A stretch of 64,000 bases of DNA from Candidatus Omnitrophota bacterium (GCA_020632535.1 JACKFJ010000001.1:346890-410889); one strand, 5' to 3'; shown: positions 10,711 to 55,397, counted from the stretch's first letter. Program-made: numbers and translations. The notes: a model not told the origin generated them from the letters alone.

Positions 10711-11427
10711 ATGATGAAAAAATATCTCGTTGGCATTTGCGCTTATAATGAAGGAGATAAGATTCGCCGCGTTATGCAAAAATTTTGCGATGATACGGTT
10801 TATGATCTTGTTATCGTTGACGATGCTTCAACGGATGGCGCATTGCAAAATATTCCAGCAGATCGACCGATTACGATTATTCGTAATGAAATACAAAAGG
10901 GCGCGGGGTATGGTGTCCGGAAGATTTTTGAATATGCGCGCGCCAAGGGCTATGACGCTTTATTTTTTGTTTCCGGAAATGATAAAGACGATCCAGCAGA
11001 TATTGTCAAACTCAAGGATGCGATTGAGCGCGGGTATGATCTGGTGCAAGGATCGCGGTATTTGCCGGGTGGTCAGCACGGGCATATGCCATTATACCGT
11101 CGGGTGGCGACGCAATTTATGCATCCGCTTCTTTTTTCCTTTTTTAGTGGGAAAAAAATAACCGATAGTACCAATGGTTTTCGCGCGGTAAGGTTATCGC
11201 TTTTGGATGATACGCGGATCAATTTGAATCAAGATTGGCTTAATGAATATGAGCTAGAACCATATCTTTTTTTTAAGGCGATTCGGCTGGGTTTTAAAGT
11301 GACAGAAGTTCCGGTTACAAAAATTTATCCGCTCAAGATTGAAGGGTATACCAAAATGAAACCATTTTCAGGGTGGTGGAGTATTTTACGACCGCTTTTT
11401 TATTTAGGTTTTGGATTTAAGAAATGA
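10711..11427 (+). CDS. family 2 glycosyltransferase (polyprenol-phosphate sugar synthase / DPM1-ArnC-like)
   Basis: ICAYNEGDKI ... VIVDDASTDG ... FVSGNDKDDP ... GSRY, the GT-A DxD-type architecture. Confidence 0.8.
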   Translation: MMKKYLVGICAYNEGDKIRRVMQKFCDDTVYDLVIVDDASTDGALQNIPADRPITIIRNEIQKGAGYGVRKIFEYARAKGYDALFFVSGNDKDDPADIVKLKDAIERGYDLVQGSRYLPGGQHGHMPLYRRVATQFMHPLLFSFFSGKKITDSTNGFRAVRLSLLDDTRINLNQDWLNEYELEPYLFFKAIRLGFKVTEVPVTKIYPLKIEGYTKMKPFSGWWSILRPLFYLGFGFKK

Positions 11428-13056: not shown

Positions 13057-14085
13057 ATGGTCAAGACATTGTTGTTTTCAGACGCTTTAAATCAACTGAA
13101 TCTTCCCGGATTAAAAAGAAATCTTTTTTCATCGGACGATTGGACAAATATTATTTTAAAAACATACAATGCGAAGATATTTATTAAATATATTGAGCGG
13201 AGCAATGAGGTCGTCAGTTATATTATTTATGCTGCTGTTAAGAACTTTCTTGAGTGGAAAATTTGTATTCTTTCGTATTCAGATTATTGTGATGGGTATG
13301 TTGAAACCCTTGAAGATTGGAAGCAGTTTTTTTCTTCGTTACGGGCGGAGTATCCTCAATACCGTTTAGCTTTGCGCAATCTTCGTGATCCCTTGCCTTT
13401 GCAGATGCCTGAATTCAAACGTTTGAGTCAAGAAAAGTTTCACAGTCTAGATTTGCGTCCTGACTTGCGGCAAATTTGGAAGAATACGCATGATTCATTT
13501 AAATCAGCGGTTAAACAATCCGAAAAAAGTGGTGTTCGTGTTCGAAGGTGTGAAAAAAAGGAATTGCGAAATTTTTACAGCTTGCATTTAAATGTTAGGA
13601 AAGTAAAGTATAAAATATTTCCGCAGCCCTATCGTTTTTTTGAAGTCATTTGGGATGAAATGATCGCTAAAGGAAAAGGCGCTTTACTTGGAGCGTATTC
13701 GCCTCAGGGAGAGTTTATTGGTGGAAATATTTATTTATTGTGTGGGGACACTTTTTATTATAAGTTTAATACTTCGTCAATGTCCGCGCTTAAGTACCGT
13801 CCTAATAATCTTTTGTTTTGGGAAGGGATTAAGTATGCCAAAGCCCTCAAGTGCGCGTCACTGGACTTGGGTTCGAGTGGTAGTGAACAAAAGGGCTTAA
13901 TACTTTTTAAAGATCATACTGGTGCCGTGGCCAGTGAAATCCAGCATTTGGGTTTTGAACCTCCGGATTATAAATTTAGTCAAAAGCGTATTCTCAAATT
14001 TATGACAAAAGCGTTTACACTTCCTTTTATTCCTAACAGTATGGTTCGATGGGGGAGTTCAATGATTTATCCTTATTTGGCGTGA
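13057..14085 (+). CDS. FemAB / GNAT-fold (Acetyltransf_6-like) aminoacyl- or acyl-transferase
   Basis: YYKFNTSSMSALKYRPNNLLFWEGIKYAK ... LDLGSSG ... GLILFKDHTGA resembles FemAB-family / BioF2-like acetyltransferase domains. Assignment is from memory of the family pattern. Confidence 0.5.
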   Translation: MVKTLLFSDALNQLNLPGLKRNLFSSDDWTNIILKTYNAKIFIKYIERSNEVVSYIIYAAVKNFLEWKICILSYSDYCDGYVETLEDWKQFFSSLRAEYPQYRLALRNLRDPLPLQMPEFKRLSQEKFHSLDLRPDLRQIWKNTHDSFKSAVKQSEKSGVRVRRCEKKELRNFYSLHLNVRKVKYKIFPQPYRFFEVIWDEMIAKGKGALLGAYSPQGEFIGGNIYLLCGDTFYYKFNTSSMSALKYRPNNLLFWEGIKYAKALKCASLDLGSSGSEQKGLILFKDHTGAVASEIQHLGFEPPDYKFSQKRILKFMTKAFTLPFIPNSMVRWGSSMIYPYLA

Positions 14086-39143: not shown

Positions 39144-39160
39144 AGTTGGAGTCATTCAAA

Positions 39161-40159
39161 ATGAAAATTGCTGTGATCGGAGCCGGAGCCATTGGATCAG
39201 TTGTCGCCGCGGGATTGTTCAAATCCAACGTCGACGTTCTGCTGGTTGGACGGGCTGATCAAGTCGCAGCCATTAAGGAACGGGGACTGACAATAAAGCG
39301 TTTTGATGGCACTGAAACGCTTAATGTTCCGGTAGCAGAGCGCTTGGATCGTGAATTTGATCTGGTGATTTTTACGACAAAAACGCAGGATGTTGATGAT
39401 GCGTACATGCAAAATTCAGAGTTTATGGAAAATTGTCTGGTGTTGGCGACACAAAACGGGGTGCAGGGAGACAATATTTTAAGTCCACATTTTTTCCCGG
39501 AACGCGTGATAAGCAGTATTGTGATGTTTGGCGCGACCTATGTTAAGCCCGGCGAAGTCACTTACAATTTTCCGGGTGACTGGATTATTGGCAAACGTTT
39601 TGTGATGAATGATATTAAAGTCCATGAGATTGCGGACATTTTAAAGAAAAGTTTTTCGGTTGAAGTGACTGACAATATATTAGGGATGAAATGGTTAAAG
39701 CTTTTCGTTAATTTTAATAATTGTATTCCGGCCTTGATCGGCAAGTCGATGCAGGAAACTTTTACCGATATGGATTTGTGCCGCTTGAGCGTCTCACTTT
39801 TAAAGGAAGCCTTGCCGATTGTACAGAGCGCTAATATCAAACTTGTGTCATTGCCGCAATTTCCTGTTGAGCGGGTGCAAGGCTTAGCGGCCATGCCATT
39901 AGAACAAGGCGCTGGCATTATGAATAAGACATTGACGGGATTAAGCAAAGAGCCGCTTTATGGGTCAATTCTACAAAGTATTTTGCGTGGCAAGACCAGT
40001 GAAATTGATTTTATTAATGGGGAAGTTGTGGCAATCGCATCAGGAATGAGAATGGATGCTCCACTTAATCGTAAAGTTGTGCGTATGGTTCACACCGTTG
40101 AAGAGACGGGAAAGTTTTTTTCAGCAGAAGAAGTTAAAAAGGAATTTAGTTTGGTCTAA
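39161..40159 (+). CDS. 2-dehydropantoate 2-reductase family (ApbA/PanE-like) NAD(P)H oxidoreductase
   Basis: MKIAVIGAGAIGS Rossmann start. LVLATQNG, KLFVNFNNCI and EIDFINGEV match the KPR family. Confidence 0.8.
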   Translation: MKIAVIGAGAIGSVVAAGLFKSNVDVLLVGRADQVAAIKERGLTIKRFDGTETLNVPVAERLDREFDLVIFTTKTQDVDDAYMQNSEFMENCLVLATQNGVQGDNILSPHFFPERVISSIVMFGATYVKPGEVTYNFPGDWIIGKRFVMNDIKVHEIADILKKSFSVEVTDNILGMKWLKLFVNFNNCIPALIGKSMQETFTDMDLCRLSVSLLKEALPIVQSANIKLVSLPQFPVERVQGLAAMPLEQGAGIMNKTLTGLSKEPLYGSILQSILRGKTSEIDFINGEVVAIASGMRMDAPLNRKVVRMVHTVEETGKFFSAEEVKKEFSLV

Positions 40160-40163
40160 TAAT

Positions 40164-40251
40164 CTGTCATCCCCGAATGTTCGTATCGGGGATCTATAGT
40201 TTATGGATTCCCGCTTAAAGATAGTAGCCTTCGGCTATAGGCGGGAATGAC
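40164..40251. repeat. family-A palindromic repeat element, copy 1 (inverted orientation)
   Basis: ctgtcatccccga...tcggggatc hairpin plus ggattcccgc...gcgggaatgac hairpin. Termini are tgtcat.../...atgac. Confidence 0.8.
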
Positions 40252-40270
40252 CTGAGGGATGGAGTTTTAT

Positions 40271-41527
40271 ATGGCACGACGAGTCGTAGTTACTGGTATC
40301 GGAATTGTTTCACCCAATGGCGTCGGTAAAGAAGCCTGTTGGAAAAGTATGATCAATGGCGTGTCGGCGGTTAAACGTGTGACCGAGTTTGATGTGACAC
40401 CTTTTAATACCAAAATTGCCGCGCAGGTCAGAGATTTTGATCCTGTCATGTTGGGCTTGACGTGGGAAGAAAGTATGCGCATGGATCGCTATGTGCAGTT
40501 TGCGGTTGTCAGCGCGCGTATGGCCCTAGAAGATTCCCATTTGAATTTGAGCAAAGTTAATCCCCAGCGAATTGGTGTTTCTCTTGCCAACGCGATTTGC
40601 GGGACCAAATATATGGAAGAGGAATTTGCGCTTGTGACCGACAGCGGCAAAAATCCAATTAATCCCGCGATTGTTCGCCCTGATCTTTATGACGCGGCGA
40701 TGTTTAATACACCGTCGAGCGAAATTTCCGCGAAGTATGGACTTAAAGGTGTTTGCAATACGATCTCGACGGGTTGTACTGCGGGAACTGATTCGGTAGG
40801 GTTTTCGTTTGAAACGATTATGGATGGCGATGCGGATATTATGGTGACCGGTGCGGCCGAAGCCCCGATTACCCCGATCACATTTGGCGCGTTTGATACC
40901 GTCAATGTTCTTTCAGCGATGAATGAATTTCCAGAAAAAGCGTCTCGTCCTTTTGATGCGAAGCGCAATGGTTTTGTCATTTCTGAAGGCGCAGGTGTTC
41001 TCATTCTCGAAGAATTACAACATGCCAAGAAGCGTGGCGCACGGATTTATTGTGAAGTCGTTGGTTTTGGGACGACCAACAATGCTTTTCATATGACGGA
41101 TTTACCTCCGGATGGCGACGCGATGGCCGATTGCATTAATATTGCGATGGATGAAGCAAAAGTCAAGCCACAAGACATCGATTATCTTAATGCCCACGGT
41201 TCCTCGACGAGGCAGAATGATGTTTTTGAAACGAGCGCGTATAAAATGGCTTTAGGAGATCACGCGTACAAAATTCCAATCAGTTCGCTTAAGTCGATGA
41301 TTGGCCATCCCTTGGCTGGCGCCAATGGTTTGGAACTTGCCGTTGGATGTATGATTTTTGAACGTAATATTTTGCCGCCGACAATCAATCAAGAATTTCC
41401 AGATCCACAATGTGATTTAGATTATATCCCCAACGTGAGTCGTGAAAAGAAAGTTAATGTCATGTTAAAAACTTCGAGCGGTTTTTCGGGGATCCACTCG
41501 GCCATGGTGTTAAGAAGATTTGAATAA
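40271..41527 (+). CDS. type II polyketide synthase ketosynthase alpha (KS-alpha)
   Basis: RRVVVTGIGIVSPNG. TISTGCTAGTDSVG with the Cys codon at 40775-40777. EAPITPITFGAFD, ASRPFD, FHMTD, NAHGSST, PDPQCDLDYIP and SSGFSGIHSAMVLRR. Collinear with actinorhodin-type KS-alpha as I remember it. Confidence 0.9.
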   Translation: MARRVVVTGIGIVSPNGVGKEACWKSMINGVSAVKRVTEFDVTPFNTKIAAQVRDFDPVMLGLTWEESMRMDRYVQFAVVSARMALEDSHLNLSKVNPQRIGVSLANAICGTKYMEEEFALVTDSGKNPINPAIVRPDLYDAAMFNTPSSEISAKYGLKGVCNTISTGCTAGTDSVGFSFETIMDGDADIMVTGAAEAPITPITFGAFDTVNVLSAMNEFPEKASRPFDAKRNGFVISEGAGVLILEELQHAKKRGARIYCEVVGFGTTNNAFHMTDLPPDGDAMADCINIAMDEAKVKPQDIDYLNAHGSSTRQNDVFETSAYKMALGDHAYKIPISSLKSMIGHPLAGANGLELAVGCMIFERNILPPTINQEFPDPQCDLDYIPNVSREKKVNVMLKTSSGFSGIHSAMVLRRFE

Positions 41528-41561
41528 AATGAGCGATATATTTTATAAAATGGAGTTTTAA

Positions 41562-42794
41562 ATGCAGCCTATTGCGATTACCGGTATCGGTTTAGTTACA
41601 CCCAGCGGGATTGATAAAAGAAAGTTTTGGTCGAATATTGTCCATGGCCGATCCGTCATTAAGAAAATTGATCGTTTTGACGCATCATTATATGAATCTC
41701 ATATTGCCGGACAAGTGCATGAATTAGACGCATACAGCAATGTCTCCTCGCGGCTTTTAAAAAAGATCGATTTATTTTCGCATATGGGTTTGGTCGCCTC
41801 CGAAATCGCGATCACTGACGCTAAGCTAGATCTTGCGCAAGAGAACTTGAAACGCGCTGGTATTTTTATGGGTAATGCCATTGGCGGTTGGCTCTACGCC
41901 GAAACCGAATTGCGTGATTTGTATCTAGAGGGAAGAGAAGGCGTAAGCCCATTTATGGCCTCCGCGTGGTTTCCCGCCGCGCCGCAAGGTCAAATTTCCA
42001 TTCATTACGGCATTAAGGGCTACAGCAAAACCATCGTCGCTGATCGAGCGAGTTCTCTGATGGCCATCGGCTATGGCGCAAAAAATTTATTGCGCGGCAA
42101 AAACGACTTTATTCTTGCCGGCGGCATGGAGGCGCCTGTCACACCGTACGCGCTTTTGTGTTGCAACACATCGGGGTGTCTTTCTTCTAATAATGACGAA
42201 GCCGAAACCGCGTATCGGCCGTTTGATAAACAACGTGACGGGTTTGCCATTGCTGAGGGCGCGGGAATTTTGATTTTAGAACCACAAGAGCGTGTCAAAT
42301 CGCGCGGTGCACATGTGTATGGCAATATTATTGGTTTTGCGACGACGACAGATGGTGTGAATCGTATTGAACCTGCGACGGACGGTGTGGAATTGGCCCG
42401 CGCGATCAAAATGGCTTTGGATGATGCCGGCCTTGCGCAGAAAGATATTGATTATATTTGTGCCGACGGTGCGGGCGGACTTTTAAGCGATATTTCTGAA
42501 ACCAAGGCGATCAAATTAGTCTTTGGTGATTACGCTAAAAAGATCCCAATTTCAGCGCCCAAAGCCGTTTTCGGAAATATGTTAGGCGCGTGCGGCGCGC
42601 TTGATGTGATAACGACATTGTTGGCGATGGAGCATGACCTTATTCCACCGACGATTAATCTCAAAATGCCTGACCCACAATGTGATTTAGATTATGTTCC
42701 CAATGAAGCGCGTGCCAAAGTTATAAAAAATGCGATGGTCATCAATCGCGGCCGCGGCGGCATCAATTGCGTTTTAGTTTTGCAGAAACCTTAA
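41562..42794 (+). CDS. type II PKS ketosynthase beta / chain-length factor-like subunit (catalytic triad absent)
   Basis: KS fold (IAITGIGLVTPSG, AWFPAAPQGQISIHYG). TIVADRASSLMAIG replaces the Cys motif, with Arg codon CGA at 42045-42047. TTDGV replaces HMTD and CADGAGG replaces NAHGSST. PDPQCDLDYVP is retained. Confidence 0.85.
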   Translation: MQPIAITGIGLVTPSGIDKRKFWSNIVHGRSVIKKIDRFDASLYESHIAGQVHELDAYSNVSSRLLKKIDLFSHMGLVASEIAITDAKLDLAQENLKRAGIFMGNAIGGWLYAETELRDLYLEGREGVSPFMASAWFPAAPQGQISIHYGIKGYSKTIVADRASSLMAIGYGAKNLLRGKNDFILAGGMEAPVTPYALLCCNTSGCLSSNNDEAETAYRPFDKQRDGFAIAEGAGILILEPQERVKSRGAHVYGNIIGFATTTDGVNRIEPATDGVELARAIKMALDDAGLAQKDIDYICADGAGGLLSDISETKAIKLVFGDYAKKIPISAPKAVFGNMLGACGALDVITTLLAMEHDLIPPTINLKMPDPQCDLDYVPNEARAKVIKNAMVINRGRGGINCVLVLQKP

Positions 42795-42800
42795 CGTGTT

Positions 42801-42865
42801 TGTCATTCCCGCGAAAGCGGGAATCCATAGAAGCGGATCCCCGATACAAGCGCTCTGGGATGACA
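42801..42865. repeat. family-A palindromic repeat element, copy 2
   Basis: tgtcattcccgcgaaagcgggaatcc hairpin, then a degenerate ggatccccga...ctgggatgaca hairpin. Lies between the CLF and ACP genes. Confidence 0.8.
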
Positions 42866-42884
42866 TGATTATTAGGAGGAGTGT

Positions 42885-43115
42885 ATGTCAGTTGAAGAGC
42901 AAGTCAAAGCTGTTTTTAAAAAAGTCCTTGATATCAATCCATCCGAAATCAAACCCAATGAACAGTTAGGCGCGTCATTAGGCATTGATTCAACGGAATT
43001 AGTTGAGATTTCCGTCGGGATCAAAAAGGAAATTGGAGTTGCGTTAGCGGATAGCGAACTTAAAAAATCACACACATTTAACGAAATCATCAAAATCATT
43101 GAGTCAAAGAAATAA
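42885..43115 (+). CDS. acyl carrier protein (PKS-associated)
   Basis: 76 aa, four-helix pattern, phosphopantetheine-attachment motif LGIDSTELVE. RBS aggagga. Confidence 0.85.
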   Translation: MSVEEQVKAVFKKVLDINPSEIKPNEQLGASLGIDSTELVEISVGIKKEIGVALADSELKKSHTFNEIIKIIESKK

Positions 43116-43123
43116 TAAAAACA

Positions 43124-43232
43124 CTGTCATTCCCGGGACCTTTGGGAGTACCCGGTACGAGGGTGCAATCTCTTAGCGGGAATCCATTATTTTAAAGTTA
43201 TGGATCCCCGATTAAAGCATTCGGGGATGACA
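43124..43232. repeat. family-A palindromic repeat element, copy 3 (first hairpin carries a ~40-nt insertion)
   Basis: ctgtcattcccg[ggacc...ctctta]gcgggaatcc, then ggatccccgattaaagcattcggggatgaca. Confidence 0.8.
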
Positions 43233-43245
43233 AAAGCAGGTAATT

Positions 43246-44043
43246 ATGATCATCGACCTTTCCTTACCTATCGACGACAAACTCGTCGAAACCCATGATG
43301 CCAAAATCGACCGCATTTCGCATGCACAAGGTGTTGAGCATTTTAATTGGGTTGTTATGAAAAATCAGCCCGGCGGTCAAGAACGTTTTGACAAAGGCGA
43401 GCGCGTCGCGACCAAAGAAGAAATTCCTGACGGCGAAATGTTATCACTCGAAATCGTTCATTCATCCGTTCATATGGGTAGTCACGTTGACGCGCCGTTT
43501 CATTATGGCAGCACATGCGAAGGCAAGCCTGCCAAGCAAATTATGGATGTTCCGCTTGAGTGGTGTCTTGGTCCCGGTGTTGTTTTAGATTTTACCCACA
43601 TTCAATTTCCCGCCGCAATTGGCAAAAAAGATGTACAAGACGCTTTAGCAAAAATCAATTACAAACTAAAACCGATGGATATTGTTTTGCTTTATACTGG
43701 CGGTGACAAGTTGCTCGGCACAGATGATTATGTTAATAAATATGTCGGTTGCACAGTAGACGCGATTGAATATTTGCTGGATCAGGGTATCAAGATGATG
43801 GGTGTGGACACGATTGGTTTAGATCGGCCATGCTTTTTGATGTTTAAGGAATTTTTGACGACGAAAGATAAGAGTAAGATTTGGCCATGCCATTTCTTGG
43901 GTCGTCGTAGGGAATATTGTCACATGGAGCGCTTGGGAAATTTGGGCGCGATACCCAAACCATTTGGTTTTACGGTTTCTTGTTTGCCGGTTAAAGTTAG
44001 AAATGCCGGAGCGGGATGGAGCCGCGTTGTCGCGATTGTTTAA
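43246..44043 (+). CDS. cyclase-family protein (PF04199; kynurenine-formamidase / putative polyketide cyclase fold)
   Basis: The family motif HxGTHxDxPxH is present as HMGSHVDAPFH. Also MGVDTIGLD. Confidence 0.75.
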   Translation: MIIDLSLPIDDKLVETHDAKIDRISHAQGVEHFNWVVMKNQPGGQERFDKGERVATKEEIPDGEMLSLEIVHSSVHMGSHVDAPFHYGSTCEGKPAKQIMDVPLEWCLGPGVVLDFTHIQFPAAIGKKDVQDALAKINYKLKPMDIVLLYTGGDKLLGTDDYVNKYVGCTVDAIEYLLDQGIKMMGVDTIGLDRPCFLMFKEFLTTKDKSKIWPCHFLGRRREYCHMERLGNLGAIPKPFGFTVSCLPVKVRNAGAGWSRVVAIV

Positions 44044-44061
44044 TTTATGGAGGATTCGCTG

Positions 44062-44565
44062 ATGTTTAAAAAATTAATATTAGGTATGTTTATTTTTCTT
44101 TTGACGAGTGTAGCGTCGGCGGATGTTTTGGTGTTTAAATCAGGAAAGACTGTTGAAGGACTTATCACTAAAGTCACCGAAACAGGTATTACCTTTCAAT
44201 CAGGGAATGATACTTTAGGCGTAAGCTATACGCAAATCAAGGATATCCGTGAATCGACTGGGCCGAATGCAAGAAATAGTCCCCATATCGCGATAGCCCG
44301 AGGAGACGGTGTTTCGCAAGCGAGTGCTGGGACTCAAACAAAAAAAGTGGTTGTGTATATGACAAGTTGGTGTGGGTATTGTCGAAAAATGACCGCTTTT
44401 TTAAAGCAAAATGGAATAGCTTACACTGCGCATGATATTGAAAAGAATGATATGGCCAAGAAGATGTATCAAAAGTATGGTGGACAGGGTGTTCCTCTTG
44501 TCATTGTTGGCGAGAAGGTCATTCGTGGTTATAATCCTGATGGCGTTGTTGCCGCGTTGCGATAA
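44062..44565 (+). CDS. exported glutaredoxin/thioredoxin-fold protein
   Basis: Signal peptide MFKKLILGMFIFLLTSVASA. C-terminal VVVYMTSWCGYCRKM (CxxC) ... GVPLVIVGEKVIRGYNP. An alternative upstream start exists at 44047. Confidence 0.7.
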   Translation: MFKKLILGMFIFLLTSVASADVLVFKSGKTVEGLITKVTETGITFQSGNDTLGVSYTQIKDIRESTGPNARNSPHIAIARGDGVSQASAGTQTKKVVVYMTSWCGYCRKMTAFLKQNGIAYTAHDIEKNDMAKKMYQKYGGQGVPLVIVGEKVIRGYNPDGVVAALR

Positions 44566-44573
44566 AGATAATT

Positions 44574-44852
44574 GTGAGTGAAGAAAATTATAAATTTAAT
44601 ATTCCTGACGAAATTTACGGTCAAGTCATCGATGGCATTGATTTGCAGATTTTAAGCTCGGACTCGGTGCGGATTATCGAAGCGTATGTAAAGCAGGAAG
44701 GGGAGCTAAGCGAAATTCAAGAACGGGTTTTACATCAATGCGAGCGTGAGCTTCAGGTAGTTATTCTTAAGACTGAAGGTAAGCTTCGTGAATATTTTAA
44801 GCAGGTTTTGCACGGCATCATGGATGTCATTAAAAAGTTGAAGCATATATAA
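44574..44852 (+). CDS. hypothetical protein (92 aa, GTG start)
   Basis: ORF only. Helical, acidic, no motif recognised. Confidence 0.4.
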   Translation: MSEENYKFNIPDEIYGQVIDGIDLQILSSDSVRIIEAYVKQEGELSEIQERVLHQCERELQVVILKTEGKLREYFKQVLHGIMDVIKKLKHI

Positions 44853-44867
44853 ACATTCGGAGGTCAG

Positions 44868-44907
44868 TTATGGGACACACACGTAATTCAATTGTTATCA
44901 GTGCACC
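44868..44907 (+). repeat. 40-bp direct repeat, upstream copy (duplicated RBS-proximal 5' end of the aromatase/cyclase gene)
   Basis: ttatgggacacacacgtaattcaattgttatcagtgcacc is identical to 45452-45491. Weaker similarity extends ~10 nt further upstream (cggag..ag). Creates a 16-codon stub ORF, 44870-44920. Confidence 0.9.
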
Positions 44908-44949
44908 TGATCGATTTTAATTTAGAACTATACCTCGAAAGGACATAAA

Positions 44950-45135
44950 ATGATATCTCCCAAAAAAGAAATGACAAAAATTATTGAACGACAGCCAGAG
45001 GACAGCTCGTATGACGAAATCCTTCGTGAACTTGCTTTTGCCCGAATGATTGACCGTGGACTAAGCGACTCCAAGGCTAAGCGTACAATTAGTAATGCGC
45101 AAATGAAACAAAGGATTGTTAAGTGGCAGAAATAA
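44950..45135 (+). CDS. type II antitoxin (ParD/RelB-like addiction-module component)
   Basis: 61 aa. SYDEILRELAFARMIDRGLSDSKAKRTISNAQMKQRI is the pattern of small antitoxins paired with ParE/RelE toxins. Overlaps the toxin start by 13 nt. Confidence 0.65.
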   Translation: MISPKKEMTKIIERQPEDSSYDEILRELAFARMIDRGLSDSKAKRTISNAQMKQRIVKWQK

Positions 45136-45425
45136 AGTGGACCAAAGAAGCGCAAACTTGGCTTAAGGATATCCATGATTATATCGCGCTTGAAAATGCG
45201 AAGGCAGCAGCCAAAATTATTGAAGAAATTTTTCAGAGGGCACAGATTTTAAAACGTTTGCCGGAGATTGGTTACAAATATGATCGTTACCCCAATGTTA
45301 ATATCCGTATTTTGCTTTACGGGCATTATCGTATCGCGTATTTGATTAAAAGGGATCACAATATTGATATTTTGGGTGTTTTTCATGGCGCGTTAGATAT
45401 TGATCGGTACATTCAAAAATCGTAA
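45123..45425 (+). CDS. type II toxin, RelE/ParE family
   Basis: 100 aa. IKWTKEAQTWLKDIHDYIA ... GHYRIAYLIKRDHNIDILGVFHGALD is the typical ParE/plasmid-stabilisation toxin layout. GTG start. Confidence 0.75.
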   Translation: MAEIKWTKEAQTWLKDIHDYIALENAKAAAKIIEEIFQRAQILKRLPEIGYKYDRYPNVNIRILLYGHYRIAYLIKRDHNIDILGVFHGALDIDRYIQKS

Positions 45426-45451
45426 TAATATAAATTAAAACGGAGATAAGT

Positions 45452-45491
45452 TTATGGGACACACACGTAATTCAATTGTTATCAGTGCACC
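45452..45491 (+). repeat. 40-bp direct repeat, downstream copy (authentic 5' end of the aromatase/cyclase gene)
   Basis: Identical to 44868-44907. Confidence 0.9.
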
Positions 45492-45909
45492 GTATAGTTT
45501 GGTTTTCGACATTTCCAATAAGATTGAACGTTGGACAGAATTGTTCGGCGATGAATATGTGAGCGCCGAAGTTTTGGAACGCAAGGACAATGAAATTGTT
45601 TTTCGCTTAACCGACGACGAAAAAAAGTCGTGGGTTTCCAAACGATGGCTTTTTAAGGAACACAATCTCGCGTATGCGTCACGGTATGAGCCGATGTTTC
45701 CGTTTCGCTATATGAAAATTATCTGGCTGTATAACGAAACTTCCGAAGGCACGGAAATGATTTGGATGCAGGATTTTGCGATGGATGAAAAATTTACCAA
45801 ATTCACAGAGACACAGATTGAAGGCTTTATTAATGAGCATTCACAGCATAATATGAAAATATTTAAAAAGGTCATTGAGGCTGAGGCTAAAGTAACAGTG
45901 GACAAATAG
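45454..45909 (+). CDS. SRPBCC aromatase/cyclase (TcmN N-terminal-domain / WhiE-ORFVI-like ARO/CYC)
   Basis: TRNSIVISAPYSLVFDISNKIERWTELFGDEY ... SWVSKR ... FRYMKIIWLY ... GTEMIWMQDFAMDE parallels the TcmN ARO/CYC sequence as I recall it ([30 protein letters not shown] ... MRWVQEFDM). Confidence 0.8.
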   Translation: MGHTRNSIVISAPYSLVFDISNKIERWTELFGDEYVSAEVLERKDNEIVFRLTDDEKKSWVSKRWLFKEHNLAYASRYEPMFPFRYMKIIWLYNETSEGTEMIWMQDFAMDEKFTKFTETQIEGFINEHSQHNMKIFKKVIEAEAKVTVDK

Positions 45910-45910
45910 T

Positions 45911-46100
45911 CCTGTCATTCCTGCAATCTTTTATCGGGAATCCATGAATATAAGTAATCCTGTCATTCCCGCAATCTTTTAGCGGGAATCCATGAATATA
46001 AGTGGATCCCCGATAGTAACATTCGGGGATGACATGTTGAATCATTCGGGGATGACATGTTGAATCATTCGGGGATGACATGTTGAATCATTGGGGATGA
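45911..46100. repeat. family-A repeat cluster, copy 4: a 48-nt unit x2, then a 23-nt unit x3.5
   Basis: cctgtcattcc(t/c)gcaatctttta(t/g)cgggaatccatgaatataagt at 45911-45958 and 45959-46003. attcggggatgacatgttgaatc at 46021-46043, 46044-46066 and 46067-46089, plus a partial attggggatga at 46090-46100. Confidence 0.9.
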
Positions 46101-47245
46101 GAAGGCTGGGAGTTTGTATTAGTAGTCGCAAAGTCACGTTTTTTCTTTTTTGTCTGGCGAATGTAACAATTTCGTTTAATTTTGCGGCTTTGGCTGCAGC
46201 AGTACCTCTGATGAGCAAGGGACTGCAGCAAAGCGAAAATGTTGTTTCTCAGATTTCCGCGTATTACATGATTCCATATGGAATCGGCGCGCTTATCTAC
46301 GCGCCTTTAGCGCGAATGATAAGCGTAAAGTGGATTCTCGCGGTCGCGATGGCGGTGTATGGAATTTTAAGTTTTGTTTGCGCGCTAAATTCGTCAATTA
46401 CGATCATTCTCGGAACTCGAGTTGTGATGGGTTTAGCGGCAGCGTGCGTAATTCCTTTATGTTTGATTTCAGTGGGAAGCATATTTGAAAAAGATGTTCG
46501 TGGCCGCATGGTCGGTTTATTTTTCTCGACGAGCTTTATCGCGTCTGTTGCCGGCATAGCTGTTAGTGGATTGTGTGATTGGCGCTGGCTGTTTATTGTG
46601 CCGGGCATTTTGGGTATTGTGACTGCCATTTTTATGGTATATGGCGCCCAAGCCATTCTAAAAGTAGGGCAGCTGCCCCCAGTTGATTATTTGCGAGTTT
46701 GGCGACAAAAGAGTGTCAGAAATATTTTGTTGTTTATTTTTGTGTTGAGCTTTTTGTATCACGGGATTCATAAATGGCTCGCGGTTTATTTACATCGTCA
46801 ATACGGATTAGAGCAGTGGGCCATTAGCGCGCTTTTTATTCTCATCGCGTTGACCGGCGCGGTTGGGCAAAATGTGGGCGGATATATCACGGATCATCTT
46901 GGCCGTCGTGTGGCGTGTTATTGGGGTGTGATGATTTTAGCGGCGGCGACCGTATTACTCTTCGGAAAATATTCTTTATTTATTTTAGCGGGTATTTTAG
47001 CGGTATTTTCGATGGGTTGGGCGCTTGGGCATAATGGGATTTCAACGGTTTTGACGGACTTTCCCGACGAGAACCGCAGCGAAATCGCCGGATTGAACTC
47101 CGCGATACGCTTTTTTAGCGGCGGCTTAGGGTTTTTTGTTGGTGGGCCGTTTGTCGAAAGGAACATTGCGCTCACGTTTTGTGGATTTGGCATTGTCATG
47201 TTTTTGTCTTCGTTTTTTGTTAAGAAAATTATACCGAAATCATAA
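46097..47245 (+). CDS. MFS transporter
   Basis: About 12 TM helices. MFS loop motif-like GRMVGLFF. The start (ATG 46097 or TTG 46091) lies inside the last degenerate 23-nt repeat. Confidence 0.8.
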   Translation: MRRLGVCISSRKVTFFLFCLANVTISFNFAALAAAVPLMSKGLQQSENVVSQISAYYMIPYGIGALIYAPLARMISVKWILAVAMAVYGILSFVCALNSSITIILGTRVVMGLAAACVIPLCLISVGSIFEKDVRGRMVGLFFSTSFIASVAGIAVSGLCDWRWLFIVPGILGIVTAIFMVYGAQAILKVGQLPPVDYLRVWRQKSVRNILLFIFVLSFLYHGIHKWLAVYLHRQYGLEQWAISALFILIALTGAVGQNVGGYITDHLGRRVACYWGVMILAAATVLLFGKYSLFILAGILAVFSMGWALGHNGISTVLTDFPDENRSEIAGLNSAIRFFSGGLGFFVGGPFVERNIALTFCGFGIVMFLSSFFVKKIIPKS

Positions 47246-47257
47246 AGGGGGAATGAA

Positions 47258-48031
47258 ATGGTTAATCTCAAGGGAAAGAACGCGATTATTACCGGAGCCA
47301 GCAAAGGGATTGGTAAGGCGGTGGCGATGCGCTTGGCCGAGAATGGAATTAATATTGCCATTGCTGCGCGTACCAAAGGACCGCTGGATGAAGCGGTCGC
47401 TGATATCAAAAGCAAGACTGGTGTTAAGGTTATTGGCATTGTGACCGATGTTGCCAAAATGGCAGATTTAGAAAATTTGGTAAATACAGCGATGAAAGAG
47501 TTTGGGCATATTGATATTCTTGTTAATAATGCGGGAGTTTCTAGCCAATATCTTTTCGAGAAGCAGCCGATCGAAGAATTTGAAAAACTTGTATACACCA
47601 ATTATCTTGGATATATCCGCATGATCAAATTGCTTATCGATCATTTTGTTGCCCGTAAAGGCGGCTCGATTATCAATATGGTTTCTGGATCGACGTTGGT
47701 TGATCCGATTCCGCGAACATTTTTAGTTTACAGTTCGCTAAAAGTTGGTTTGCGGGCGTTTTTAAAAGGCCTGTTTTGGGAAATGCGTGATAAGGGCATT
47801 AAGGTTACATCCATTTTGCCCGGTGTTGTCGATAGTGATTTGACGGGGCATTTGCAGGATATTACGACGGAACAAAAAGACCGGCTTATGTCGCCGCAAG
47901 CCGTCGCGGATATGGTGATGTTCGCTTTATCATGTCCGGCCAACAGTTGTCCACTGGAGCTTGCTGTCATTAATCAGCAGACGCCGTGGACCAAGCCCGT
48001 GATTGACTATGCTCAGGCACAGGCTAAATGA
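47258..48031 (+). CDS. short-chain dehydrogenase/reductase (possible polyketide ketoreductase)
   Basis: TGASKGIGKAVA (TGxxxGxG), NNAG, S...YSSLK (Ser-Tyr-Lys triad). RBS aaggggg. Confidence 0.85.
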   Translation: MVNLKGKNAIITGASKGIGKAVAMRLAENGINIAIAARTKGPLDEAVADIKSKTGVKVIGIVTDVAKMADLENLVNTAMKEFGHIDILVNNAGVSSQYLFEKQPIEEFEKLVYTNYLGYIRMIKLLIDHFVARKGGSIINMVSGSTLVDPIPRTFLVYSSLKVGLRAFLKGLFWEMRDKGIKVTSILPGVVDSDLTGHLQDITTEQKDRLMSPQAVADMVMFALSCPANSCPLELAVINQQTPWTKPVIDYAQAQAK

Positions 48032-48113
48032 GCACATGATTTACACGCGATAGCGACGTAAATCAGTAGTGCGAATTTATGCCGCCTAATTGGCGGCCAA
48101 ATAGGAGAGGGAC

Positions 48114-48347
48114 ATGGACAAAACCGTATTCGTATTTCCAAAAAACAAGTTTCAAGAAATTCGTGTCGGCATCCGCGAGTATAAGGGAAATGATTTGATT
48201 GATATCCGCACTTGGACGCTGACGCAGGGATCGGAAGAAATGGTTCCGACGGCAAAAGGTGTTTCGATTAATGTAAACCTGATCGCGGATTTAAAAAAGG
48301 CTTTAGAAGAAGTTGAGAGCGAACTAAAAAAGAATAAGTTGATCTAA
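48114..48347 (+). CDS. PC4/YdbC-like ssDNA-binding family protein
   Basis: 77 aa. EIRVGIREYKGNDLIDIRTW ... PTAKGVSI resembles bacterial PC4-fold (YdbC-type) proteins. Confidence 0.5.
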   Translation: MDKTVFVFPKNKFQEIRVGIREYKGNDLIDIRTWTLTQGSEEMVPTAKGVSINVNLIADLKKALEEVESELKKNKLI

Positions 48348-48350
48348 ATT

Positions 48351-49253
48351 ATGTCAGGTATTATTGATACCCATAGTCACTATTTTCCGCCAAAAATCGC
48401 GGAGAACACCGCCTTTTTTAAAGTCGGCTGGTCTGATCTTGATCGTCAGCTTTCGATGATGGATCAATGCGGTATCGAAAAAGCTGTTCTCCTTTATCCG
48501 ACGAGTGACGCGCATTTGAATATGGGCGGGTGGGGGAATTTAGCAAAGATTTATAATGAAGCGATTGGGTCGGTTGTTAAAAAATATCCCGATCGATTTG
48601 TCGGCGCGGGTATTTTGCCGCCGGACAATGTTGGTGAAGGTTTAAAGAATGTGATGGATTTGAATTTGAAAGTGTTGTCTTTAGCGTCGAGCTATGATGG
48701 AAAATATTTAGATGATGAAAAGTTTTTTTCTGTTTATGATTTTGCCGCAAAGGAAAATGTTGCCATTCATGTGCATCCGCAAATTATAAATCCTATTGGT
48801 GATGATCGTTTGCGTGATCCATTACTTACGCCTGTTTTGGGATATGTTTTTGACGTTTCGGTGTGTTTGGGAAAGATGATGATGGCGGGTATTTTTGACA
48901 CGTTTCCAAAAGCGAAATTTATCTTTGCGCATTATGGTGGTGTCCTTCCGGTGGTCAAAGAACGTTTTGACAACACATACCAGATGCTGCGTAAGCGCAA
49001 TTATGTTAAGGACTTAGGTCGCACTCCGGGTGAGATCTTTAAGAATTTGTATTTTGACACAAGCGGGTCAAAATCATTGGCTTCGTTACTTTGCAGCTTG
49101 GAAGTCACTGATAGTCAACACATTTTGTTCGGGAGCGATTATCCCGCCAATCAGGGTTTGGGCGAGTCAATTGATGTGATTCAAAATTCGGCGATTGCCG
49201 CAAGTGCGAAGAGTCAGATTTTACGTGATAACGTCGCGCAGATTATTAAATAA
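48351..49253 (+). CDS. amidohydrolase-2 (ACMSD-type metal-dependent hydrolase/decarboxylase) family protein
   Basis: IIDTHSHYFP (HxH), HVHP, FAHYGG and FGSDYP (terminal Asp) are typical of PF04909. Confidence 0.75.
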   Translation: MSGIIDTHSHYFPPKIAENTAFFKVGWSDLDRQLSMMDQCGIEKAVLLYPTSDAHLNMGGWGNLAKIYNEAIGSVVKKYPDRFVGAGILPPDNVGEGLKNVMDLNLKVLSLASSYDGKYLDDEKFFSVYDFAAKENVAIHVHPQIINPIGDDRLRDPLLTPVLGYVFDVSVCLGKMMMAGIFDTFPKAKFIFAHYGGVLPVVKERFDNTYQMLRKRNYVKDLGRTPGEIFKNLYFDTSGSKSLASLLCSLEVTDSQHILFGSDYPANQGLGESIDVIQNSAIAASAKSQILRDNVAQIIK

Positions 49254-51638: not shown

Positions 51639-53628
51639 TGGTTTACCATAGTTTGTGATCAAATTATTAAGAGTATACGATGAATGACTTGGCAGACTAA
51701 GGCGATGAAGGACGTGATAAGCAGCGATATGCTTCGGGGAGCCGCAAATAGGCTTTGATCCGGAGATTTCCGAATGGGGCAACCCCGTTAGGGTTATACC
51801 TAACGATGGCTCTCTGAATACATAGGAGAGATCAAGCGAAACGCTGAGAATTGAAACATCTAAGTATCAGCAGGAATAGAAACCGAAAGGGATTCCCCCA
51901 GTAGCGGCGAGCGAAAAGGGAAAAGGCTAAACCTTACAGTTTACTGTGAGGGGTTGTGGGGCCTCAATATGGGATTGTTTAGTGGTAGGCGAAGCGGCTG
52001 GAAAACCGCACCATAGGAAGTGAAAGTCTTGTAGCCGAAATTACTAAGCACCTTAGAGGTACCCCAAGTACTACGGGGCACGGGAAATTCCGTAGGAATC
52101 TGGCCCGACCATGGGCTAAGCCTAAATACTAAAGTCTGACCGAAAGGGAACTAGTACCGTGAGGGAACGTTGAAAAGAACCCCGGCGAGGGGAGTGAAAT
52201 AGAACCTGAAATTGTATACTTACAAGCTGTCAGAGGCCTATGCATACCTTCGGGTATGAATGGCTGATGGCGTACCTTTTGCATAATGGACCGACGAGTT
52301 ATTATATCGTGCAAGCTTAAAGGCTTATGGCCTGTAGGCGCAGCGAAAGCGAGTCTGATAAGGGCGACAATAAGTACGATATAACAGACCCGAAACCAGG
52401 TGATCTATCCATGGCCAGGTTGAAGCTGTGAGAAATCTCAGTGGAGGACCGAACCCATAAACGTTGAAAAGTTTAGGGATGAGCTGTGGATCGGAGTGAA
52501 AGGCTAATCAAACTTGGAAATTGCTGGTTCTCCCCGAAATAGTTCTAGGACTAGCCTCGGGAAATATCATGATAGGGGTAGAGTTACTGAATAGGCTAGG
52601 GGGCTTACCAGCCTGCCAAACCTAACCAAACTCCAAATACTATCATGTTTTAACCGGGAGTTAGACATTGGGGGCTAAGCTTCAATGTCGAGAGGGAAAC
52701 AGCCCAGACCATCGACTAAGGTCCCAAATATCATCTAAGTGGTAAAGGAAGTGGAATCACATAAACAGCCAGGATGTTGGCTCAGAGGCAGCCATCATTT
52801 AAAGAGTGCGTAACAGCTCACTGGTCGAGTGACTTCGCGCCTAAAATGAACGGGGCTCAAGATGATAACCGAAGTCATGGCTTTTATCTTTCTTCGGAAA
52901 GAAAAGGGGTAGGGGAGCGTAACGTCAAGCGTTGAAGGTGTACCGTAAGGAGCACTGGAGTAGACGTTAGTGATACTGTCGGTATGAGTAGCGAAAACTA
53001 TGGCGAGAAACCATAGCGTCGAAAATCTAAGGTTTCCTGGGGAAGGTTAATCCACCCAGGGTTAGTCGATCCTAAGTTGAGGCCGAAAGGCGTAAGCGAT
53101 GGATATCTGGTTAATATTCCAGAACCGGCTATGAACGTTATCAGCTTAGTGTGACGCAGTGGGCTAGTTACGCGGGGTGTTGGATGTCCCCGTTTGGGCT
53201 AATAGTCCTGTTTAATCGCAGGATGAGGAGCTTGACAACCTGCGGCTACGGCCAAAGGAATGGTAATGAGGCTAGGCTGTCAAGAAAAACCACTAAGTGA
53301 GTATCATAGCTGATCGTACCGTAACCCGACACAGGTAGATGATCATAGAATGATAAGACGCTCGAGAGAAATGTCTCTAAGGAACTAGGCAAAATGACCC
53401 CGTAACTTCGGGAAATGGGGTGCCTGATTGGTCAAGTCCCTCGCGGATGTAGCCATGATGGTCACAGTAAAGAGGCCCGGTCGACTGTTTAGTAAAAACA
53501 CATCACTTTGCTAACTCGAAAGAGAACGTATAAGGTGAGACACCTGCCCAGTGCTGGAAGGTTAACGGGAGAGGTCAGCGCAAGCGAAGCTTCGAACCGA
53601 AGCCCCAGTAAACGGCGGCCGTAACTAT

Positions 53629-54341
53629 AGACAAGACCAACTGTAGTTGTAAAATTTGGCTATATGCTGGAACGTCCTGTTAAGCTGATCGTACGCGCCT
53701 TCATTGAAAGGATGCGTGACAATCGATTAGATAGGGATAATCAGCAGGAAAGGTCTGAAAATGAATCCAGAAATCGGATATTACCTTGCCGGTTTTGCGG
53801 ATGGAGAAGGAAGTTTTAATATTTCTTTTCGCCGCAGGCAAGATTATAAAATTCCATGGAAAATTTCTCTGTGTTTTAATATTTCCCAAAAAGATAAAGT
53901 TATCTTGGCTTTATACAAACATCATTTAGGATGCGGTACGTTACGCGGTAGGCCTGACGGTGTTTGGTATTATGAGGTCAATAACTTCAATGCCATCCGA
54001 GAAAAGGTAATACCTTTTTTCAAAAAATATCATTTTCTTTCTGCAAAGAAGAAACGCGATTTTGCGAAATTCTGCCAAGCCGTAGAAATGATAGAACAAG
54101 GCAAACATCTGCACTATGAAGGTATAAAGGAAGTATTAGAATTACGAAGAGAAATGAACGACGGAGGGAAACGCAAATTCAGTGAAAATGATATCCTCCG
54201 CGCTTTTCAGAAATCCTCAGAGACTATACGCCAAATCCCATCGCAAGATGGGAATGATATAGTCCGATCTTCAGAGAAATCTGAAGTCATCAAAGTAAGA
54301 ATTGATGAGCAGGGTTAAAAGTAACCTTGTTAACATAAATG
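53629..54341 (+). mobile_element. group I intron at the 23S U1917 (E. coli numbering) site
   Basis: The 5' exon ends in U (53628) and the intron ends in G (54341). Removing 53629-54341 restores ccgtaactataacggtcctaaggtagcg. A candidate internal guide gtagttgt (53643-53650) pairs with exon gtaactat (53621-53628), giving a U:G pair at the splice site. Carries a LAGLIDADG ORF. Confidence 0.85.
53761..54318 (+). CDS. LAGLIDADG homing endonuclease (single-motif, I-CreI-like size)
   Basis: YLAGFADGEGSFNISF motif at residues 8-23. 185 aa, with a basic C-terminal half. Located entirely within the 23S intron. Confidence 0.85.
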   Translation: MNPEIGYYLAGFADGEGSFNISFRRRQDYKIPWKISLCFNISQKDKVILALYKHHLGCGTLRGRPDGVWYYEVNNFNAIREKVIPFFKKYHFLSAKKKRDFAKFCQAVEMIEQGKHLHYEGIKEVLELRREMNDGGKRKFSENDILRAFQKSSETIRQIPSQDGNDIVRSSEKSEVIKVRIDEQG

Positions 54342-55397
54342 AACGGTCCTAAGGTAGCGAAATTCCTTGTGGGGTAAGTTCCCACGCGCACGAATGGTGT
54401 AACGAATTGGGCGCTGTCTCGGAGACATACTCGGTGAAATTGTAGCGGCGGTGAAGATGCCGTCTACCCGCACCAAGACGAAAAGACCCCAGAACCTTTA
54501 CTGCATTCTGGTATTGAGTTTTGGTCCTATTTGTGTAGGATAGGTGGGAGGCTTTGAAGCTCGGGCGCTAGCTCGGGCAGAGCCAACGGTGAAATACCAC
54601 CCTGATAGTATTAGAATTCTAATCCTGTCCCGTGAAACCGGGCAGGCAACAGTGCCAGATGGGCAGTTTGACTGGGGCGGTTCCCTTCTAAAGAATAACG
54701 AAGGGGTTCAAAGGTCTCCTCATGACGGTTGGCAATCGTCAGTAGAGTGTAAAGGCATAAGGAGGCTTAACTGCGAGTCCGACAGGACGAGCAGATACGA
54801 AAGTAGGACTTAGTGATCCGGTGGTTGGTCATGGGACTGCCATCGCTCAACGAACAATAGGTACTCTGGGGATAACAGGCTGATCGCGCTCGAGAGTTCA
54901 TATCGACAGCGCGGATTGGCACCTCGATGTCGGCTCATCCTATCCTGGGGCTGTATAAGGTCCCAAGGGTCCGGCTGTTCGCCGGTTAAAAGGGTACGTG
55001 AGCTGGGTTTAGAACGTCGTGAGACAGTTCGGTCTCTATCTGGTGTGGGCGTGTGATACTTGAAGGGGAGATCTTCTTAGTACGAGAGGACCGGAAGATA
55101 CGAACCACTGGTGTTCCAGTTATCCTGCCAAGGGTAATGGCTGGGTAGCCAAGTTCGGAATGGATAAGCGCTGAATGCATATAAGTGCGAAACCAACCCC
55201 AAGATAAGGTATCGATTCTGCGTAAGCAGAGAGAGGCTCCTTGTAGACTACAAGGTTGATAGGCTGCGAGTGTAAGTTCTGAAAGGAATTCAGCTAAGCA
55301 GTACTAATAAGCCGAGAGTTTGATCACTTAAAAAAGCTTTTTCTTGATTCGTTTTACCCTTTTATTCCATAACTGAAAATTTCATGAAACGGAATTT

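Follow-up and report, generated by a model that had tools for sequence, protein, structure and literature searches.

Hairpin doublets in four gaps of an Omnitrophota polyketide synthase cluster belong to the NTS/SRM class and are probably gene-less derivatives of an Ssn-type nuclease cassette

The stretch of DNA analysed here (64,000 nucleotides from Candidatus Omnitrophota bacterium, GCA_020632535.1 JACKFJ010000001.1:346890-410889; hereafter the window) contains a conserved polyketide synthase (PKS) gene cluster at 39146-49253, in which a gene for an ApbA-type reductase is followed by those for a ketosynthase (KS), a second KS-like protein (CLF), an acyl carrier protein (ACP) and a cyclase. 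Four gaps of this cluster, namely ApbA/KS, CLF/ACP, ACP/cyclase and SRPBCC/MFS, are occupied by a composite element built from two hairpins, which in each case starts 3-9 nt past a stop codon and ends ahead of the next Shine-Dalgarno sequence, all within a co-directional gene string. Here we identify these composites as members of the hairpin class that includes the Neisseria Transformation Sequence (NTS), and propose that they probably derive from the ends of a cassette encoding a small GIY-YIG nuclease of the Ssn type.

The half-site words GTCATTCCCGC, GCGGGAATCC, GGATCCCCGA and TCGGGGATGAC, searched at 0-1 mismatch over the whole window, co-occur only at 40164-40251, 42801-42865, 43124-43232 and 45911-46100 (sites 1 to 4), with shuffled sequence yielding 0.6-3.5 matches per word. 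A single-hairpin covariance model (CM), built from 52 copies outside the window and run on it with filters off, gave eight matches (E 3e-12 to 0.08), all within the four gaps, its best score elsewhere in the window (~58 kb) being E = 1.5. Both searches agree with an earlier note on this DNA, which had placed copies at these four sites and seen none in the rest of the window.

Both hairpins of the composite are one unit type on opposite strands, Y-GTC-[AT(T/C)CCCG(C/A)]-loop-[(G/T)CGGG(A/G)AT]-C, with an 8-bp stem. The type A stem is ATTCCCGC and the type B stem is ATCCCCGA, the latter enclosing a 9-nt loop resembling ATGYTTNNA. Since the A unit on one strand and the B unit on the other point inward, 8-16 nt apart, the ends of the doublet read YGTCAT...ATGACR. 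Clean 8-bp stems are predicted in single-stranded DNA (ssDNA) for six of the eight hairpins (-7.7 to -9.7 kcal/mol, z -3 to -4.8). The peculiarities that the earlier note had ascribed to individual copies were all recovered: the doublet at site 1 is inverted relative to sites 2-4, hairpin 1 at site 3 carries an insertion (39 nt, in the loop), and site 4 is amplified, with a 48-nt unit repeated 2.0 times at 45910-46003 according to Tandem Repeats Finder (TRF) and a 23-nt unit repeated 3.6 times.

A full-text literature search with the DNA words of the repeat led to a recent description of this class (Chenal et al., Nat Commun 2025, PMC11893778). In that work the NTS is given as CGTCATTCCCGCGMAVGCGGGAATCYRG and contains dRS3 (ATTCCC-N8-GGGAAT), the wider class is described by a degenerate motif, SRM (HGTCWYN(0-2)YYVSBRHN(0-5)WNVSBRGN(0-2)RNCYNB), that is reported from many phyla, and the partner protein SsnA is a 94-aa single-domain GIY-YIG protein that binds and cuts the NTS as ssDNA only. 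Cleavage depends on the GTC upstream of the palindrome and binding on the C directly after it, mutation of Y6, Y17 or E64 abolished cleavage, and ssnA homologues commonly have SRMs on both sides, a layout likened by the authors to an insertion sequence (PMC11893778). In the window, site 2 hairpin A (tGTCATTCCCGCGAAAGCGGGAATCCAt) agrees with 26 of the 28 positions of the NTS consensus and includes a dRS3 that is exact, ATTCCCGCGAAAGCGGGAAT, the other copies having longer loops or the ATCCCC variant. The published SRM pattern matches the window three times (42801, 43125 and 45961; 0.05 expected), always in the four sites, and type B hairpins miss it through its loop-length limit only. The GTC directly 5' and the C directly 3' of the palindrome, the cleavage and binding determinants of SsnA, are kept in 8/8 hairpins. 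Judged by these motifs, the four inserts belong to the SRM/NTS class. The earlier note had recognized neither that hairpin 1 is essentially the Neisseria NTS/dRS3 sequence nor that the composite corresponds to the end-hairpin pair of a GIY-YIG (Ssn-type) nuclease cassette.

That cassette is found in relatives. In another Omnitrophota genome (L072) hairpin A lies 4 nt upstream of the ATG of a 95-aa open reading frame (ORF) matching Pfam GIY-YIG (E 7.5e-16), with an inverted hairpin, GATCCCCGC-cttc-GCGGGGATGACA, beyond its stop codon. Approximately 1.2 kb beyond this intact cassette, at 1407-1577, the same two hairpins surround what an internal deletion has left of the gene (its 3' end together with ~25 N-terminal codons), an arrangement that reads as a deletion intermediate between the full cassette and the gene-less doublets. 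We examined the DNA around three further homologues (L081, on a 1.43-Mb Omnitrophota contig; L082-L091, in a Patescibacteria-type context; and L092-L101), and in all three hairpin A lies just 5' of the ATG and at least one inverted hairpin just 3' of the stop. The four distinct homologues (L072, L081, L082/L084 and L092-L101) thus have the arrangement tGTCATTCCCGC-loop-GCGGGAATC(C/T)A, then ATG...stop, then a downstream hairpin ending in ATGACA that is mostly GGAT(C/G)CCCGN-loop-NCGGG(G/C)ATGACA. The number of downstream hairpins varies among the otherwise identical contigs L093-L101, much like amplified site 4, and because copy number differs between contigs with identical upstream sequence these arrays appear to expand and contract rapidly. 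In L093, L095, L098 and L101 the repeated hairpin is GGATGCCCGA-cagggaatt-TCGGGCATGACA, in 2-4 tandem copies. A mini-hairpin, GTACCCGGTACGAGGGTGC, is nested in the loop insertion of site 3 (43148-43166) and recurs as GTACCCGGTATGAGGGTAC at L072 108-126, inside the long loop of a solo hairpin beside the ssn cassette; the nested motif, GTACCCGGTAYGAGGGT, occurs only these two times in the ~2 Mb compared.

The product of the GIY-YIG gene has 94-97 aa and, among 13 homologues, invariant Y7, Y18, R28, H32, E65 and N84, of which Y7, Y18 and E65 are each one residue off the catalytic Y6, Y17 and E64 of SsnA in position. It has at least 8,000 database relatives, including proteins 70-77% identical in Omnitrophota, Patescibacteria and WS5, and this identity between Omnitrophota and Patescibacteria homologues hints at horizontal spread of ssn. 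Genes of the Ssn type are also encoded in other Omnitrophota genomes (P0121, P0136). Searches of PDB, NCBIfam and PADLOC with the protein returned weak or generic matches only (UPF0213 structures, E 0.03; PDC-S14, E 8e-4) and no named Ssn model.

We then consider the doublets that have no gene between their hairpins. A scan of metagenome contigs, in which hairpin A had to be followed within 30 nt by the beginning of hairpin B, revealed gene-less doublets in at least 120 stretches, in unrelated contexts and on contigs of differing sequence composition, in keeping with the view of the earlier note that this is a dispersed class of extragenic palindromes, common in environmental genomes and akin to miniature inverted-repeat transposable elements (MITEs) or repetitive extragenic palindromic (REP) sequences. 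A GIY-YIG gene lies nearby in 1 of the 80 loci fetched. In these 80 the left and right hairpins, with their loops, are often reverse complements of each other except at one stem base (ATTCCC versus ATCCCC, a difference that the search pattern requires), so that the doublet ends constitute near-perfect terminal inverted repeats. Across 90 distinct doublets we found no target-site duplication, 2-6-nt flank matches occurring at about chance frequency, nor do the four window sites show one; GTCAT is preceded by a pyrimidine in 83/90 and ATGAC followed by a purine in 84/90. Because the same hairpins flank the gene, a deleted copy of it and no gene at all, the window elements are best read as non-autonomous derivatives of the cassette, comparable to MITEs or to the hairpin-forming REP doublets known as REPINs.

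Coordinates of genes and hairpins in the window are collected in Table 1. The start of the MFS gene is ambiguous (46091-46120): the in-frame ATG at 46097 is supplied by the last degenerate 23-nt unit of site 4, TTGGGGATGAG, and an alternative start, ATT at 46118, has a GGGAG Shine-Dalgarno sequence 5 nt upstream, a spacing as at the other genes.

Table 1. Genes of the PKS core and hairpin elements in its gaps (window coordinates; fold energies are for ssDNA).
Feature	Position	Strand	Description
ApbA-type reductase	39146-40159	+	
Site 1, hairpin B	40163-40198	+	cTGTCATCCCCGA-atgttcgta-TCGGGGATC; CM 42.1 bits, E 2.8e-9; fold -7.7 kcal/mol, z -4.0
Site 1, hairpin A	40204-40251	-	GTCATTCCCGC, 26-nt loop with its own small hairpin, GCGGGAATCC; CM match 40204-40248(-), E 0.077, long loop penalised; fold -9.7 kcal/mol, z -3.3
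KS	40271 (probable start)-41527	+	
Second KS-like protein (CLF)	41562-42794	+	
Site 2, hairpin A	42799-42829	+	tGTCATTCCCGCGAAAGCGGGAATCCAt; CM 45.7 bits; fold -9.0 kcal/mol, z -4.8
Site 2, hairpin B, decayed	42832-42867	-	One stem mismatch (CCCAGA vs TCGGGG); CM 28.7 bits, E 1.3e-5; fold not better than shuffles
ACP	42885-43115	+	
Site 3, hairpin A	43123-43188	+	39-nt loop insertion; innermost pair mismatched
Site 3, hairpin B	43199-43234	-	GTCATCCCCGA-atgctttaa-TCGGGGATCC; top CM score of the window, 52.9 bits, E 3e-12; fold -7.7 kcal/mol
PF04199 cyclase	43246-44043	+	
Glutaredoxin-like protein	44047-44565	+	172 aa
92-aa ORF	44574-44852	+	No assigned function
ParD-like/ParE pair	44950-45425	+	ParD-like 44950-45135, ParE 45123-45425
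SRPBCC cyclase	45454-45909	+	
Site 4, decayed duplicate of hairpin A	45911-45946	+	First copy of the 48-nt tandem unit; CM 27 bits
Site 4, intact hairpin A	45959-45994	+	GTCATTCCCGC-aatctttta-GCGGGAATCC, 9-nt loop; CM 48.5 bits; fold -8.1 kcal/mol; SRM pattern match
Site 4, hairpin B	46001-46036	-	CM 41.9 bits; fold -7.7 kcal/mol
Site 4, tandem array	46020-46100		23-nt unit x 3.6 (TRF), repeating the outer arm of hairpin B, TTCGGGGATGACAtgttgaatca
MFS transporter	from about 46097	+	

To see the same gaps in relatives we used the best 80 of 312 KS matches in a species-representative genome collection (1.19 Mb in all; genomes labelled Omnitrophota or generically, e.g. 'uncultured Planctomycetales'). 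KS identity among the 80 is 73-95%, and the order ApbA-KS-CLF-ACP-cyclase-...-SRPBCC-MFS-SDR-amidohydrolase is kept, at least largely, in 80/80. From this shared order and identity we conclude that the cluster is ancestral in the phylum and therefore not a recent acquisition, as the earlier note had proposed it might be; GC content also lies near that of the window (43.5% in the cluster, 41.8% in the rest), and the neighbouring genes are housekeeping ones. Such conservation of the cluster across Omnitrophota, with 312 species-level relatives, is unusually high for a type II PKS-like system.

In the relatives the hairpin family is rare and patchy (~21 hairpins at ~12 sites in 10-11 loci, all intergenic). 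In-cluster copies lie in the CLF/ACP gap of L001 and L067, the cyclase/SRPBCC gap of L045, the SRPBCC/MFS gap of L058 and L060 and the SDR/amidohydrolase gap of L037, with 74 of the 80 orthologous clusters lacking any copy and no relative having more than one. Because most orthologous gaps are without a copy and no cluster has several, the hairpins are not operon-specific regulatory parts. With cluster organization unchanged, this distribution speaks against the dedicated role in setting KS:CLF:ACP stoichiometry that the earlier note had entertained, and is the outcome which that note had itself named as telling against its proposal.

Filled and empty versions of individual sites can be compared directly. 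The closest relative, L001 (KS 95%), has only the CLF/ACP doublet in common with the window, with a different hairpin-B stem, and its ACP/cyclase gap measures 1 nt versus 130 nt in the window. L003 has gaps of 29, 8 and 13 nt and no repeat, and where the window has elements the gaps of L003 and L001 measure 29, 8 and 1 nt. Conversely, the window represents the empty state for insertions in L072, its AMP-binding and PNP genes overlapping by 17 nt versus a gap of 487 nt in L072, and its PNP/IF-2B gap being 3 nt versus 341 nt. When any one of the window elements is deleted in silico, a gap of plausible size (20-25 nt) remains and the Shine-Dalgarno sequence is unharmed. Taken together, these comparisons of orthologous gaps show that the elements are gained and lost at intergenic junctions. 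The locus as a whole is plastic, as the earlier note had surmised: gap sizes in the cluster range from 0 to about 4.9 kb across the 80 genomes, with varied small ORFs inside, and in the window alone three doublets, a ParDE cassette and a glutaredoxin-like gene have been added. GIY-YIG genes were a candidate for the ORFs in the relatives' gaps, but ORF clustering gave nucleotidyltransferase-like, toxin-antitoxin-like or unassigned small genes instead.

Considering this evidence as a whole, we think it probable, with fair confidence, that the inserts are gene-less inverted doublets of SRM hairpins derived from an Ssn-type cassette, and that interaction of the nuclease with its hairpins has driven their spread. 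We infer both the action of Ssn on the window copies and the mode by which these moved. The hairpins would extrude in ssDNA, whereupon an Ssn nuclease encoded elsewhere in the genome would bind them and nick just 5' of GTC, and this interaction, followed by repair, recombination or slippage, could lead to their spread, amplification and decay. Tolerated spots would be intergenic, a few bases past the stop codon of one gene and before the ribosome-binding site of the next, and any effect on mRNA would be a by-product. By analogy with Neisseria, incoming ssDNA carrying the hairpins would be cut; as the four junctions each have one motif per strand, entry of either strand would leave the PKS core in pieces of ~2.6, 0.3 and 2.7 kb.

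Several points weigh against this explanation. The window contains no GIY-YIG/ssn gene (tblastn at E<=1 and a GIY-YIG motif scan), such that a cognate nuclease in the source organism is assumed. The assignment of the relatives' proteins to the Ssn family (CDD cd10448) draws on Pfam domain, length and residue positions and should be taken as provisional. Mobility of Ssn cassettes is raised in PMC11893778 as a hypothesis only. Of the eight hairpins, two are decayed (B at site 2 and A at site 3), and loops and spacers differ so strongly among the four window copies that these are not recent copies of each other. Finally, the model does not account for the fourfold clustering: four copies within 6 kb have a chance of ~1e-3 under a uniform model (arithmetic from the coordinates), for which local spread, permissive gaps or selection are possible causes.

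Although speculative, one can go further and imagine that the hairpin-ssn-hairpin unit is itself a mobile element, mobilized by its own nuclease without target-site duplication, the window doublets being its MITEs and their concentration a result of local spread or of selection for fencing. We regard this extension as doubtful. If true, it would constitute a kind of element not yet recognized, with ends defined by inverted hairpins, and fencing would mean that the PKS genes are guarded against replacement by transforming DNA.

Of the other explanations, the one that survives best, although we judge it unlikely, is that the elements act at the RNA level in the operon, as 3' exonuclease barriers, processing sites or ribosome-stalling sites that set the output of ApbA, KS/CLF, ACP and cyclase. 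REP sequences of E. coli act as such RNA-level elements. All four window elements sit in a co-directional gene string between a stop codon and the next Shine-Dalgarno sequence, their RNA folds far better than shuffles (z -2.8 to -4.9), a convergent doublet yields RNA hairpins in either insertion orientation, and REPs near stop codons have been reported to stall ribosomes and stabilise transcripts (PMC12306157). Set against this are the 74 same-order clusters without a copy and the finding that relatives have different repeats at these junctions, or just 1-29 nt. The conserved parts are moreover the GTC and C flanks and the stems, that is, the DNA-recognition determinants of SsnA, while loops and spacers vary freely, and these units also bracket a nuclease gene and turn up in unrelated metagenome contexts. 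Intrinsic (Rho-independent) terminators, the intra-operon terminators of the earlier note, can be ruled out, as a T-run follows none of the hairpins: no family hairpin was called on the + strand, and within the elements the one terminator predicted is a mini-hairpin on the minus strand, in the loop at site 1. Absence from most orthologous operons, lack of T-tracts and conservation of the DNA-recognition parts together indicate that the elements do not owe their existence to an RNA role. The hairpins would be transcribed along with the operon, and expression may plausibly be affected as a side effect.

Less probable still is that the hairpins are recombination or integration target sites kept for cassette exchange, in the manner of dRS3, which serves the IS110-type recombinase of the Neisseria filamentous phage and is described as a phage recombinase target in PMC11893778. 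The exact dRS3 at site 2, the many different small genes inserted in cluster gaps across the phylum and an IS110-family transposase near one hairpin-ssn unit (L095) would fit such a role, but the ParDE cassette of the window is bounded by a 40-bp target duplication rather than by hairpins, gene insertions in the relatives' gaps mostly do not adjoin the hairpin family, and in the window the hairpins have no linked recombinase. The small size, terminal inverted repeats, extragenic position and many dispersed copies of the elements would suit classical MITEs, or REPs and bacterial interspersed mosaic elements (BIMEs), moved by a DDE or RAYT (IS200/IS605-like Y1) transposase instead of a GIY-YIG nuclease, and absence of a target-site duplication is as in REPs and IS200/IS605, yet this is the least credible explanation of all, given that DDE-type MITEs make target-site duplications (0 in 90 copies here), that the hairpin-bracketed gene is GIY-YIG in every full-length unit examined, that the 5' flank is GTCAT and not the GTAG typical of REPs, and that the only transposase gene noticed beside copies is the IS110-family one near L095, RAYT genes not having been systematically searched.

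Turning to the other insertions, an exact 40-bp direct repeat, TTATGGGACACACACGTAATTCAATTGTTATCAGTGCACC (44868-44907 and 45452-45491), brackets the ParDE-like toxin-antitoxin pair. It consists of the ribosome-binding region and opening codons of the gene for the SRPBCC cyclase, so that the cassette appears to have entered this gene at its 5' end and duplicated the target in doing so. Neither ParD nor ParE has a match in any of the 80 orthologous loci, and the glutaredoxin-domain gene is missing from all 80 orthologous clusters; in L001-L003 a homologue of the 92-aa ORF directly follows the cyclase gene. Other repeats were seen in the relatives' gaps. L002 (~9834-10000 and 13206-13326) and L004 (~9887-10000) carry a palindromic doublet family, GTCATTGCGAG...GGCAATCT...AGATTGC...CTCGCAATGAC, at ApbA/KS and ACP/cyclase, junctions that hold SRM doublets in the window; since it has GTCAT ends in common with them, this suggests a sister family of repeats that perhaps has a nuclease of its own. 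Heptamer-like arrays of GGGGTTAG/GGGATTAG that form long palindromes, and a GCTAGACG...CGTCTAAGC palindrome, fill the same gaps in relatives (L002 at KS/CLF, 11255-11652, and at CLF/ACP; L001 and L005 at ApbA/KS). Further along the window, the 23S rRNA match at 51657-55327 spans 3,671 nt versus a 2,925-nt model and so contains an insertion of ~750 nt, in which an ORF at 53761-54318 (+) codes for a LAGLIDADG homing endonuclease of 185 aa (Pfam E 2.7e-21); the rRNA operon probably holds an endonuclease-bearing intron here.

The translations given in the earlier note fared well, VIPAKAGI being correct and SRESGNP and RGND readable in the sequence. Its remark that such strings turn up as spurious small proteins finds anecdotal support: a database GIY-YIG protein (P0190) has an N-terminal extension, MSFPRRRES, that is translated hairpin, and gene callers placed 41-aa ORFs without a Pfam match over the upstream hairpin region in L093 (822-947), L094, L096 and L097. 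The window's own spurious ORF, 45887-46081(-), does not add to it, as a database search found no homologue. A literature search with the string VIPAKAGI found no paper.

With these results a repeat that litters environmental genomes, and is a source of spurious small ORFs, gains an identity and a likely partner enzyme, which should help annotation of Omnitrophota and other candidate-phyla genomes. For the PKS cluster, the hairpins are neither conserved regulatory parts nor a sign of horizontal acquisition. The dRS3 core has been known for some time, having been described two decades before 2025. The repeat class and its nuclease were also already known, from 2025 (PMC11893778), and what is new here is the occurrence in Omnitrophota, the tight convergent doublet, the second stem subtype and the series of full, deleted and gene-less forms with filled and empty orthologous sites, which provides comparative evidence for testing the mobility of Ssn cassettes that was left hypothetical there.

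Among known systems the nearest is that of Neisseria NTS/SRM and SsnA, with which the window shares a near-identical hairpin sequence (GTCATTCCCGCGAAAGCGGGAATCC), the same orienting GTC and C flanks, an extragenic position with clustering around particular genes and, in relatives rather than the window itself, the same motifs on both sides of a ~95-aa single-domain GIY-YIG gene. It differs in host, Omnitrophota being a phylum not named in PMC11893778, and in that a deletion intermediate joins the doublets to the full cassette, MITEs being unmentioned in the text of that paper. Further differences are that the window copies are tight, convergent and gene-less, that the second stem subtype, ATCCCCGA with its ATGYTTNNA-like loop of 9 nt, forms the right end, and that the nuclease and transformation evidence is that of Neisseria, the Omnitrophota lineage being known here from sequence alone. 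The ATTCCC-N8-GGGAAT core palindrome, exact at site 2, the intergenic arrays and the association with variable loci recall dRS3 and the neisserial intergenic mosaic elements (NIMEs). NIMEs are 50-150-bp repeat units, each flanked by dRS3, whereas the spacers here are of 8-16 nt and are not repeated units.

REPINs and BIMEs, the RAYT-linked elements of Pseudomonas and E. coli, likewise consist of two inverted hairpins with a short spacer, able to fold back as a whole, are extragenic without target-site duplication and tolerated between operon genes, and are linked to a gene, present in single copy, that has the repeats on either side. Their enzyme is a Y1 (HUH) transposase and their conserved 5' flank GTAG, in contrast to the GIY-YIG nuclease and GTCAT found here (RAYT genes, as noted, were not systematically searched). 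MITEs derived from insertion sequences, such as Correia elements, have also kept terminal inverted repeats and lost the gene, and the deletion intermediate of L072 and the many dispersed copies strengthen the likeness. Of the features that define MITEs the doublets therefore show terminal inverted repeats and an origin by internal deletion but lack the target-site duplication, and their parent, the Ssn cassette, differs in not being an established transposon.

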